Below are positions 30,401 to 33,400 of a stretch of DNA of 64,000 bases, piece by piece. The stretch lies in NCBI RefSeq assembly GCF_003991155.1, contig NZ_CP031297.1. One strand, 5' to 3'. A program made the position numbers. Numbering within the stretch: the stretch's first letter is position 1; every line of letters starts with the position of its first letter. Source of the stretch: Escherichia coli. Lineage in GTDB: Bacteria > Pseudomonadota > Gammaproteobacteria > Enterobacterales > Enterobacteriaceae.

Positions 30401-33400
30401 GATCTCGACTTCCTAAAGGGCGGGCACTTGAACGCCATGAGATTCGCAGCCTCTTTTTCACATGTGAAAGTGATTCAAGCGCCAAAGGGCTTCGGGATGC
30501 GGCCATTCTCGGGGTGCTCCTCGGGTGTGGCTTGCGCCGCTCGGAAATCGTTGCGCTGGACATGGGAAGCATGATCTACAAGGACCGCGCTCTCAAGGTT
30601 CTTGGCAAGGGCAACAAAGAGAGAATGGCGTATGTGCCTGGTGGCGCATGGAAAAGACTGGATAAGTGGGTTGAAGAGGTTCGAGGAACGCATGAAGGGC
30701 CTTTATTCCCGAGGATCAGGCGGTTTGATGATGTGACTGGAGAGCGGATGTCGGATCAGGCCATCTACCACATCTTGGAGACCAGAAGAGTTGAAGCCGG
30801 TCTGGAGATGTTTGCGCCCCATGACCTGCGACGCACCTTTGCCTCCTCGATGCTGGATAACGGTGAGGATATTGTGACCGTGAAGGACGCAATGGGCCAC
30901 TCAAGCATTGCAACTACCCAGAAATATGACAGACGCGGCGATGAGCGTTTGAAGAGAGCGAGCCAACGCCTCGATATAGCGGATTAACAGCATGAATGAT
31001 GAAGAACTCGAACTTGCCAGAGCCGAAGCCATGAAAGCCGATAGGTGCTTTTCAAAAGGACGGCTCAGGGACGAATTTCGGATGAAGCCTAAGCCAGGAG
31101 TAGAGCCAGTTTCGTTCTACAAAAACGGGTATGGTGGCCAATTTGGAGTGTACCGGATAGCAGATTGCCAACCAATGCGGAGAAGGGGTTGTTCACCGGC
31201 ATCACAAAAGCAAATAAGGGCGCAATCCATCCTTTCGGTCAAGGCAAGAATGCGTAGCAACCTGGCAAAGGCCTCTGTCATGGCACAAAGGTGGGTCGCT
31301 CTGGAACCTCTGGTTCTCGATACCGAGACGACCGGACTTGGTGAAAGAGACCAGGTGATCGAGCTGGCTGTTACTGACATCAGAGGCGCGGTTCTCCTCT
31401 GCACCAGATTACGGCCAACCGTGGAAATAGACCCTCAGGCAATGGGTGTTCATGGCATCACCGAGACTGAGCTGTCGAATGAGCCTACGTGGACTCAAGT
31501 TGCGCCAGCTCTCGCCCGGCTTTTGTCGGGCCGTCATCTGGTGATATTTAACTCCAGTTTCGACAGTAGGATGTTGAGGCAAACAGCCAGTGCATTTGGA
31601 GACCAACTCTCTTGGTGGCAAGAGCAGAACTGTCTGTGCGCGATGAAGCTGGCGGCTGATGCCTTTGGCTCAACCAACCGGCACGGCACAATCTCACTTG
31701 CGGATGCCACCTGCGAGGCAGGTGTGAGCTGGAAAGGTCGAGCCCATTCAGCAGCGACCGACGCTATTGCCACCGCCGACTTGGTGACAGAGATAGCCAA
31801 AGTCCAACGTGACCTCGTGGTCCAGCTCCAGGAGCTTCAAAGCAAAGGTAATTTGGAATGACAGAACAATCCTACGGCGAAAGCCTCAAATTTTTCTCAG
31901 ACTGGCAGAAGGACCCCGCGAAACGCACCGGCCTGAATGTGCAACACACGCTAACCAGAGGTGAATATCCTACGGTCAGCATCGAGATTGCGCCGATCAG
32001 GGCATCGGGGTCCAGCCCAGACTGGAAAAGCAAGATCACGGTGCAGCTCACTCGCGGCGAACTGACGGCGTTTTGCAGCGTTCTCTTTGGTTTGCGTAGC
32101 AAGGCTGAGGGTTCCTATCACGGCGACGCGAAGAATAAGAGCTTTGCGGTTTACAACAACGGCAAGGCCGGTGTTGCGATCATCCTTAGTGAGCGAGGAA
32201 ACCAGCTCCAGAATTTCATCAATGATGACGACCGAATGGAGCTCGCAGTCTTCGCAGTTCGCCAGCTTTCCAACGCATGGAAAGTTACCCCTTCTGATGC
32301 CATCGCGCTGCTACGCCAATCAGCGTGGATGGACCGAAATTTGTCCTAATCGAGCAAATCTAGGCACCCTAAAAGTCGTCCTATAACCACAAAGTTAGAC
32401 CATCATGCAAAGTGGGGTATAGAGGGTGCCAGCCCCACCCCAGCAGTCCCCCTCAGCCACATTTCTGGCTTGCCCCGCGCTTTTCTTCTTTCTCTCTTTT
32501 TCTCTCTCTTTCTCAATCTAATCTCACACACGAAGGTCAAACAGGGCACCCGCCGACGCGAAGCGGAGGCGTATTCTTGCCCCTCCCCCTCATTGCATGA
32601 TGGTCTAAATCTGTCTACTATGTAACCAATGAACTGTTAGAACAAACCCACACATAGGCGGCAGCATGGCTAAAAACTTCATATCAGAACAATTCTCGGC
32701 CATGTGCCGCGACTTAACGAACCTGTCCTCTCTTATCAAACGACTACCGCCACGGTACGCAAAAGTTGCGGCCATCCCTCCTACCGGAAAAGGAATGGAG
32801 AACGAGCCCGTCAACAAGATTGTCGTAACTGAACAAACTGGGCGCGAAGCTCTTGAGCTGGCAGCGCACAGCTACAGAGATCTTCACATCAACCCAGACT
32901 ATTCGCAGAAGTCTGCCAGGCGCACCGTGGGGGTACTCTGGTTCTCCCCTTCCAGGATTGGTGTAGCTGACGAAATTGCGGCGACGGTTGAACGCATCAA
33001 CGCGGCCAAAGCTGGTATCGAGGAGTTCATTATCTCGACGTACCCCACCAGGCAAGAGAGGTTTGAAGCACTTCGAGCGGACTGCCCTGGTGTCATGACT
33101 CTCCACCTTTACAGACAAATTCGGTGCTATACCAATGGCGACATCGACTCTATCCGCTTCACCTGGCAACGGAAGGACTCCTTGAAGAAGCCCGTAAAAG
33201 AGGAGCTTTTGCAACGCATCAGAGAGGAGCTGGAGCGATCTGGGCCAGACTATCAACTTCCCCTGGAGCAGCTTATCCAGAAGATCGCCAGCACCCCGGA
33301 GCCTTATCTCCGGGAGCGAAGGGAAGTAAAGGTTCAACCGGTGGCAAACGTCATGGCCGCAGGGGTACTCAAAACCGTTACCGCGCCAATGCCCCTGATC

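Follow-up and report, generated by a model that had tools for sequence, protein, structure and literature searches.

We analysed a stretch of 64,000 nucleotides of Escherichia coli DNA (NCBI RefSeq assembly GCF_003991155.1, contig NZ_CP031297.1), referred to below as the window, and concentrated on an inverted-repeat element that lies directly upstream of a gene encoding a Tus-family protein. The window is IncC plasmid backbone. The spacer that carries the element matches 1042 plasmid records, nearly all of them IncC or IncA, and window positions 40000-64000 are identical to the end of the plasmid pVb2175 (NZ_OK067239.1), so that window position 1 corresponds to plasmid position 109,511. The spacer itself (32350-32665, 316 bp) runs from the stop codon of a 163-codon open reading frame (ORF) to the ATG of the 291-codon Tus-like gene, and the element occupies most of it. 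Both the sequence and a repeat finder revealed a perfect 16-bp inverted repeat, in which TTAGACCATCATGCAA (32395-32410) is matched by its exact reverse complement, TTGCATGATGGTCTAA (32593-32608), with an arm-to-arm distance of 182 bp. These repeats had been proposed in a preliminary description of this DNA and are real, as is the pyrimidine bias that it reported between them: positions 32480-32514 form a 35-nt unbroken run of C and T, which is the longest in the window and holds a 10-bp tandem repeat. A second inverted repeat, said to be nested inside the first, was reduced to two short local hairpins (AGCCA...TGGCT at 32455-32470; CGCC-GA-CGC[GAA]GCG-GA-GGCG at 32551-32571) and an imperfect inward extension of the outer arms. 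With mismatches allowed, the outer repeat itself reaches 29 nt (32389-32417 / 32586-32614) and is 86% complementary. The positions of these features in the window are as follows.

31858..32349, + strand: gene for a 163-aa protein that matched neither Pfam nor NCBIfam
32395..32410, - strand: distal Ter-like site (left arm), which reads TTGCATGATGGTCTAA on the - strand; its presumed non-permissive end faces rightward, to the interior
32469..32476 and 32576-32583, + strand: 8-bp direct repeat CTTGCCCC at a spacing of 107, located by the repeat finder
32480..32514, no strand assigned: pyrimidine tract, 35 nt of pure pyrimidine, with purine on the opposite strand
32551..32571, no strand assigned: GC-rich hairpin with GCGAAGC (32558-32564), 21 nt inside the proximal arm
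32593..32608, + strand: proximal ('vicinal') Ter-like site (right arm), 58 nt upstream of the ATG of the tus-like gene
32593..32621, + strand: putative tus promoter, with -35 TTGCAT at 32593-32598, a 17-nt spacer and -10 TACTAT at 32616-32621
32666..33541, + strand: Tus-family gene, 291 aa, the presumed protein partner of both arms

We estimated that a perfect 16-mer inverted pair would occur by chance in a spacer of ~316 bp with a probability of ~1e-5 (~45,000 position pairs x 4^-16). When the 64-kb window was searched for the 16-mer with up to three mismatches, the two exact copies and two 3-mismatch matches were returned, against 0.56 expected, and the complete 173.5-kb plasmid contains two 16-bp sites only. 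The element is a real functional element and, as judged from the comparisons below, it is probably the replication terminus of the plasmid and the operator of its tus gene.

The ORF downstream of the element matched the Pfam family Ter (PF05472, E = 3.6e-46) and aligned with the E. coli Tus structures 1ECR/2I06 over residues 10-252 (E = 2.4e-21). By these matches, its product is a true Tus homologue. The residues of the IncC protein that align to E49, I79, F140, G149 and R198 of E. coli Tus are identical, and in 20 relatives, positions E45, F133 and G142 of the IncC protein show little or no variation. In E. coli Tus, E49, I79, F140 and G149, together with H144, reportedly belong to the C(6) pocket, or lock, described by Mulcair et al. 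in 2006.

The arms of the element also resemble the binding site of E. coli Tus. The arm core reads GCATGATGG-TCTAA, compared with GTATGTTGTAACTAA in E. coli Ter, and when GCATGATGG-TCTAAATC was aligned to GTATGTTGTAACTAAAGT, 11 of 18 positions were identical with one gap. The G at Ter position 6 is kept in the arm, as the first G of TTGCATG, and the variants TGTATGTTGGTCTAG and GTATGATGTGTTCTT are intermediate between the IncC arm and E. coli Ter. The position and orientation of the site relative to the gene are shared as well. TerB (AATAAGTATGTTGTAACTAAAGT) of E. coli MG1655 is separated from the tus ATG by 10 nt and, in the direction of the gene, runs ...GTATGTTGTAACTAAAGT. Toward tus, TerB reads AAGTATGTTGTAACTAAAGT, and toward the tus-like ATG, the right arm reads TTGCATGATGGTCTAAATCT, which is the same polarity. 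The core consensus of E. coli Ter, GNRNGTTGTAAYKA, matched nowhere in the 173.5-kb plasmid, and because the plasmid lacks an E. coli-type Ter, the Tus of the host is unlikely to act on it. Taken on its sequence, the arm is a diverged Ter variant, related to yet distinct from E. coli Ter.

To reveal the distribution of the arms, we examined the loci returned by a Tus-alignment search, in which each species was represented by one genome. Among the 27 loci returned, 11 (Tus 47-99% identical) carried the same 15-17-bp inverted pair upstream of tus, with an arm gap of 144-194 bp and a proximal arm 50-78 nt from the start codon. In the loci in which Tus was only 47-64% identical, the arms were still identical at 15-17 of 17 positions, and the interiors barely aligned with that of the window. 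A + strand copy of the site was present 43-78 nt before the start codon in 21 of 26 full-length related loci, and also, at -143/-118, in one from Aliagarivorans taiwanensis (L033); the consensus of 32 sites was tTGCATGATGGTcTAA. Sites that remain identical at 16 of 16 positions while the adjacent protein falls to 47% identity are under direct selection. In addition, chromosomal-type relatives (Moritella, Denitrificimonas and others; Tus 41-46% identical) possessed one + strand site at -43 to -77, and no partner arm was found within 2.5 kb of this proximal site. As these single sites have no partner, the motif follows tus and not the other half of an RNA stem.

Three arm variants, GCATGATGGTCTAA, GTATGTTGGTCTAG and GTATGTTGGCATAT, track three Tus clades, and GTATGATGTGTTCTT is found beside a Pseudoalteromonas tus. 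In more distant plasmids, the two arms differ jointly from those of IncC. The Providencia plasmid pCHS4.1-3 (Tus 43%) and a related metagenome contig (41%) share the arm pair CTAGACCAACATACAAT / ATTGTATGTTGGTCTAG, and plasmid pA of Morganella morganii (NZ_CP132601.1, 1282-1459; Tus 31%) has a 19-bp perfect pair, AAATATGCCAACATACAAA / TTTGTATGTTGGCATATTT. The Morganella dyad sits between the plasmid replication initiator gene and tus, a trap directly beside a replication gene, as in plasmid R1. Three Ter-like sites occur in plasmid pjat527 of Pseudoalteromonas sp. JSTW (NZ_CP058973.1, 1237-1460; tus at 1468; Tus 28%): AGTAAGATGTGTTCTT on the + strand at -16, AGTATGATGTGTTCTT on the - strand at -119 and a second - strand site at -231. 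Their geometry matches that of the IncC dyad, but the locus has no purine.pyrimidine tract. In A. taiwanensis (2120-2395), we observed Ter-like sites of the ATGATGGTTTAA type, a single distal one and two proximal ones in tandem, 25 bp apart, which recall on a small scale the back-up Ter clusters found in E. coli. Arm gaps of 144, 160, 172, 180-185, 193-194 and ~250 bp across lineages give no support to strict helical phasing.

The proximal arm coincides with a promoter-like sequence. The proposed tus promoter agrees with the consensus at 3 of 6 positions at -35 and at 4 of 6 at -10, and a scan for strict sigma-70 promoters and terminators called nothing. Nevertheless, a TAnnAT-type hexamer (for example TACGAT, TATTAT, TAAAAT or TATAAG) lies 16-17 nt after (T/C)TGCAT in 9 of 10 aligned dyad lineages, the hexamer being unclear in the remaining one (L013). 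This conserved -10-like hexamer occurs at the proximal arm only, with none after the distal arms, and promoter function therefore cannot explain the conservation of the distal arm. In E. coli, TerB overlaps the tus promoter, and Tus autoregulates at that vicinal site. The analogy suggests that the IncC tus promoter lies beneath the proximal site and may be repressed by Tus in the same way.

In every dyad locus examined, the two sites lay on opposite strands, the distal one on - and the proximal one on +. By homology with TerB, both blocking faces (the TTGCATG ends) would point inward, which is the geometry of a fork trap: with both faces directed inward, forks could enter the interval and could not leave it. 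The chromosomal trap and the ter pairs of plasmids R6K and R1 follow this principle too, which the IncC element would scale down to ~200 bp. We also computed the cumulative GC skew of the plasmid backbone, with the resistance island and the efflux insertion removed. The minimum was at 3.0 kb, at repA/oriV, and the maximum, at 141.15 kb, fell within 0.75 kb of the dyad (141.9 kb). The mean values were +0.076 and +0.031 between origin and dyad, compared with -0.017 and -0.017 on the far side of the dyad, with the genes on both sides lying mostly on the same strand. Per-gene skew around the dyad was too noisy to use. The placement of the terminus near the dyad by GC skew is supportive but weak evidence.

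On the basis of these comparisons, we consider it probable that the element is a compact fork-trap cassette, that is, two opposed sites for the plasmid's own Tus, ~200 bp apart and directly upstream of tus. The identification of the arms as cognate Tus sites, which draws on the sequence and its conservation, is the part that we hold with most confidence; fork arrest is held with less. By homology with E. coli Tus-Ter, a Tus monomer would bind each 16-bp arm, and each complex would stop a fork from one side only. The alignment with TerB indicates that the blocking end would be the TTGCATG end, which carries the G.C pair equivalent to position 6. A fork arriving from either side would then pass the first arm and stall at the second, and replication would end inside or at the edge of the ~200-bp zone, 31 kb from repA/oriV one way and 142 kb the other. 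Confining termination in this manner may limit over-replication or rolling-circle multimers, as reported for the ter sites of plasmid R1, and bound Tus would probably repress its own gene at the proximal arm, as at E. coli TerB.

Besides the arms, the interior contains a feature whose position is conserved. The tract includes a 17-nt perfect mirror repeat, TCTCTCTTTTTCTCTCT at 32491-32507, which extends to 29 nt with at most two mismatches. A mirror repeat of at least 15 nt was present in 11 of 344 window tiles of 186 bp each, and 29 nt was the maximum in the window. With a perfect and a near-perfect mirror repeat in a 35-nt pyrimidine run, the tract has the sequence required of H-DNA (a homopurine.homopyrimidine mirror repeat of ~15 bp or more). 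An equivalent tract was found in every dyad cassette examined in the plasmid-type clade, down to a Tus identity of 31%, and it starts 62-86 nt from the distal arm regardless of the length of the interior. Purine runs reach 25 nt in the Providencia type and 41 nt in the Morganella type. On the tus strand, the tract is pyrimidine in the IncC-like lineages and purine in Xenorhabdus hominickii, Providencia, the related contig and Morganella. The interior of the X. hominickii locus (L011; NZ_NJAI01000013.1, ~2270-2430) aligned only when reverse-complemented, with a score of 42.5 as opposed to -20.5. The arms and tus keep their orientation there despite the inverted interior, and a XerC-like recombinase gene lies downstream of tus (3798-4760). 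Since the tract is tolerated in either orientation, a role at the level of DNA is indicated rather than one in a transcript. A hairpin of similar position to the GC-rich hairpin and of different sequence was found in the IncA, Edwardsiella and Alcanivorax-type cassettes.

The interior also varies within the plasmid group. Among IncC plasmids with near-identical backbones, the tract varies by steps of 10 bp: length alleles of -10, +10, +20 and +30 bp and spacer alleles of 321, 331, 341, 351 and 361 bp were observed, and the Shewanella plasmid pJNE4-2-NDM shows an exact 107-bp loss between the CTTGCCCC repeats with both arms kept. A small protein encoded across the tract is unlikely, because the 10-bp length alleles would break any reading frame. 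Work on Ter-induced deletions leads one to expect slippage, deletion between short repeats and inversion where forks stall, and the slippage alleles, the 107-bp deletion and the inversions fit a fork-stalling zone. In the proposed cassette, the purine.pyrimidine tract would be a conserved third component that acts at the level of DNA and independently of orientation. Our leading guess, held with low confidence, is that it acts on an arrested or merging fork as a non-B-DNA element (H-DNA or single-strand) or as a curvature element. More speculatively, the tract might, for example, steady the stalled fork through a triplex or a single-strand platform, recruit a resolving activity such as the plasmid's own topoisomerase III, or block re-replication. 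We know of no description of a conserved mirror-repeat position between two Ter sites.

The main residual rival to the fork trap is that the arms are operators only, which let Tus or another plasmid protein repress tus or its neighbours, perhaps by looping, with no fork arrest. The overlap of the proximal arm with the conserved -35/-10 sequence would be expected of an operator, as would the autoregulation of the Tus family at a vicinal site that is known from E. coli TerB; moreover, plasmids survive the loss of the distal arm, and Klebsiella oxytoca has a tight palindromic arrangement beside tus that looks more operator-like. Against an operator role alone, the distal arm is conserved as strictly as the proximal one, although it is 144-330 bp away from the promoter and lacks promoter features itself; most of the reported lock-pocket residues of Tus are conserved; GC skew switches beside the dyad; and the opposed arm orientation is identical in every dyad lineage. 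We consider an operator without fork arrest unlikely. The preliminary description had also named the neighbouring tyrosine recombinase as a possible user of the element, and inverted repeats around a short segment do recall an invertible switch or a XerC/D-like recombination substrate, in which the 182-bp segment would be flipped or recombined at the repeats. A XerC/D-like recombinase is encoded 1.4 kb upstream, similar genes are found near the cassette at two further loci (L015 and L011), and besides the inverted interior of X. hominickii, the tract is on the opposite strand in three other lineages. Against this, a query with the interior inverted matched none of 1068 IncC/IncA plasmid records; inversions were seen only between distant lineages; the arms, 182 bp apart, have no 6-8-bp core spacer and do not show a dif/cer/loxP-like architecture; the recombinase is missing at several dyad loci (L013, L017, L033 of A. 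taiwanensis and L049 of Morganella pA); and single-site loci have nothing to invert. In addition, the recombinase-dependent IncA/C recombination hot spot, RecHS, which has a 14-bp repeat and a spacer of 6 bp, was mapped elsewhere, between other ORFs (PMC5587640). A link between the element and RecHS was dropped for that reason, and a quick look near the resistance island of the window found nothing convincing. A switch of this kind thus appears very unlikely.

The two remaining proposals of the preliminary description fared no better. In the case of a structured non-coding RNA, the two arms would form a long stem, and the element does fold better than shuffled sequences on both strands (z = -4.2 and -4.4), while the arms change together between lineages. 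The z-scores, however, are a direct consequence of the inverted repeat itself, and a scan against Rfam gave only chance-level microRNA and lncRNA matches (E = 1.8-5.2), which fell well short of the gathering scores. The element has no promoter or terminator of strict consensus, its interior tolerates 10-bp length alleles, the 107-bp deletion and complete inversion, and many lineages have a single arm with no partner. The likely tus promoter, furthermore, starts in the right arm, which places the interior outside the tus mRNA. We regard such an RNA as highly improbable. A miniature inverted-repeat transposable element inserted upstream of tus would have terminal inverted repeats and a size near 214 bp, as this element has. 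Yet the 173.5-kb plasmid has a single copy, the flanking ACAAAG and ATCTGT show no target-site duplication, the position relative to tus is fixed down to 31% protein identity with no empty site found, and it is the arms that are conserved while the interior diverges; insertion of a transposable element is scarcely credible. Among the options offered by the preliminary description, only a termination site fits, since the arms are Ter-like, track tus across distant lineages and persist as a single copy where the partner arm is missing.

Several observations weigh against the fork-trap cassette and have to be set beside the evidence in its favour. The arm does not match the consensus of E. coli Ter, and its conserved halves lie 1 bp closer together, so that the blocking and permissive ends can be assigned only by homology. 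H144 of E. coli Tus aligns to an R in the IncC protein. The co-variation of both arms in distant plasmids would also be expected from base-pairing or gene conversion. For the plasmid Tus lineages of K. oxytoca and Citrobacter, no clear dyad was found, only ambiguous proximal candidates, and the dyad is therefore not universal. The skew maximum is shallow, with 15.51 at the peak compared with 14.75 at 100 kb, and in the Aeromonas salmonicida relative, the skew is unusable, as that plasmid is an insertion-sequence mosaic. The tract was lost in the Shewanella plasmid and the distal arm in pRA1, and these natural losses indicate that neither is essential for short-term plasmid survival. Finally, our literature search found no characterisation of IncC/IncA Ter sites or of plasmid Tus function. 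As for pRA1 (NC_012885.1, 290-800), which is the IncA reference, its distal arm and left interior were lost by a rearrangement next to IS26. It retains the tract, the proximal arm and tus, and with the distal arm lost, its trap would be one-sided.

The cassette can be compared with the known replication fork traps. With the E. coli Tus-TerB system it shares a homologous protein, a site just upstream of tus in the same orientation, a promoter (putative in IncC) that overlaps this site, the half-sites G.ATG.TG and CTAA, and the G at position 6. It differs in its shortened, non-consensus site, which is 58 rather than 10 nt from the ATG, in an opposing site that is 182 bp away rather than hundreds of kilobases, and in being plasmid-borne. 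With the terminus of R6K and terR of R1, it has in common two close opposed ter sites on a conjugative plasmid, placed asymmetrically to the origin; whereas those plasmids combine E. coli-type Ter with the Tus of the host, the IncC plasmid has its own tus, a diverged site and no E. coli-type Ter. The R6K terminus reportedly contains a 20-bp inverted-repeat core, described by Horiuchi and Hidaka in 1988, and to our knowledge, no purine.pyrimidine tract lies between the sites of R6K or R1. In R1, the paired ter sites enforce the replication mode and stable maintenance (reviewed in PMC10331603). On chromosomes, the vicinal-Ter approach of Toft et al. 2021 (PMC8707476) revealed minimal two-site traps of 18-56 kb. 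Such a Type I 'narrow fork trap dyad', as found in Edwardsiella tarda and other non-Enterobacteriaceae, likewise consists of no more than two opposed Ter sites, of which one is vicinal to tus, but it encloses 18-56 kb of chromosome with dif, compared with ~0.2 kb on the IncC plasmid. By sequence, the IncC system is homologous to and like Tus-Ter, yet a diverged variant of it. The features that distinguish it are that it is self-contained, ~0.2 kb in size and mobile and that it has a conserved purine.pyrimidine tract.

Earlier studies have encountered tus genes of this kind. Carriage of ter/Tus by plasmids was reported by Galli et al. 2019 (PMC6549158), who proposed plasmids as the source from which chromosomal tus was domesticated; their study did not map the ter sites of plasmids. 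Xie et al. 2021 (PMC7858055) described a tus beside the origin of the second chromosome of Pseudoalteromonas, for which a search with the E. coli consensus found no ter sites, and a 2023 review (PMC10331603) marks the Pseudoalteromonas ter site with a question mark. The 'mobile' plasmid tus of Galli et al. and the Pseudoalteromonas tus of Xie et al. fall in the same clade of non-resident tus genes as that of IncC. The motif family, including the candidate sites beside Pseudoalteromonas tus, was not found in the literature searched. A broader interpretation would treat Ter, purine.pyrimidine mirror repeat and Ter, together with tus, as an ancient self-contained mobile termination module with the tract as a functional third component, the plasmid form being ancestral to the domesticated chromosomal Tus-Ter and the motif family identifying the ter sites of the Pseudoalteromonas second chromosome. 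We regard this combined interpretation as speculative and improbable as it stands.

The genes around the element are, in order, those for a XerC/D-like tyrosine recombinase, a DnaQ-like 3'-5' exonuclease and the 163-aa protein, followed by the element and the gene for the Tus-family protein; after tus come a coiled-coil DNA-binding protein and a UvrD-like helicase and then, beyond an insertion of ~15 kb, traFHG. The recombinase and the exonuclease, which is of the DEDDh type, occupy 29971-31861, directly upstream, the coiled-coil protein gene 33694-34734 and the helicase gene 35000-36448. Genes for DNA transactions, namely those for the recombinase, exonuclease, Tus, coiled-coil protein and helicase, are thus clustered at the putative terminus. 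The 163-aa protein is 57% identical to an ORF upstream of the dyad at L015, and ORFs with similar N-termini flank the dyad at L011, L013 and L033. Its homologues stand beside the dyad in the Alcanivorax-type, Marinobacterium, Xenorhabdus and Aliagarivorans loci, divergently in the last, and it is absent from the chromosomal-type loci that retain the site. The 163-aa protein may be a functional partner of the cassette, although its membership of the module is uncertain. At the 3' end of the coiled-coil protein gene, positions 34705-34730 form a 26-nt pure purine run, AAGGGAGGGAAAAAGAAAGAGGAAAA, the longest purine run in the window; its composition partly complements that of the pyrimidine tract, which lies 2.2 kb upstream, although this may be a coincidence.

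Farther away, the window contains two other large segments of note. Relative to pNDM-1_Dok01, ~15 kb (36500-51650) are inserted between the UvrD-like helicase gene and traF. This segment, whose G+C of 0.40-0.50 is below that of the backbone, carries a - strand operon for RND efflux (adaptor, permease and outer-membrane genes), an MFS transporter gene and a tyrS-like gene. The gene order of the efflux operon matches that of tmexCD-toprJ. According to the annotation of pVb2175 (109511-130211), window positions 1-20700 are a resistance island with blaNDM-1, ble, ISCR1 copies, sul1, qnrA1, chrA and a mer operon, bounded by IS5075/IS4321 and located upstream of an rhs gene. Identity with pVb2175 was confirmed for window positions 40000-64000 only, and positions 1-200 did not match the pVb2175 record.

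IncC and IncA plasmids are major carriers of carbapenemase and other resistance genes, and the window studied here carries an RND efflux cluster and, by the annotation of pVb2175, blaNDM-1. The 200-bp cassette offers a handle on the part that a fork trap may play in the stable inheritance, copy-number control and multimer avoidance of these plasmids, and it would be a compact natural system for the study of fork fusion. For the 'mobile' Tus clade, the comparisons also yield a consensus of diverged Ter sites, which earlier searches with the E. coli consensus had missed. They draw attention to the purine.pyrimidine tract as a conserved partner element, and the finding bears on the proposed origin of chromosomal Tus-Ter by domestication from plasmids.

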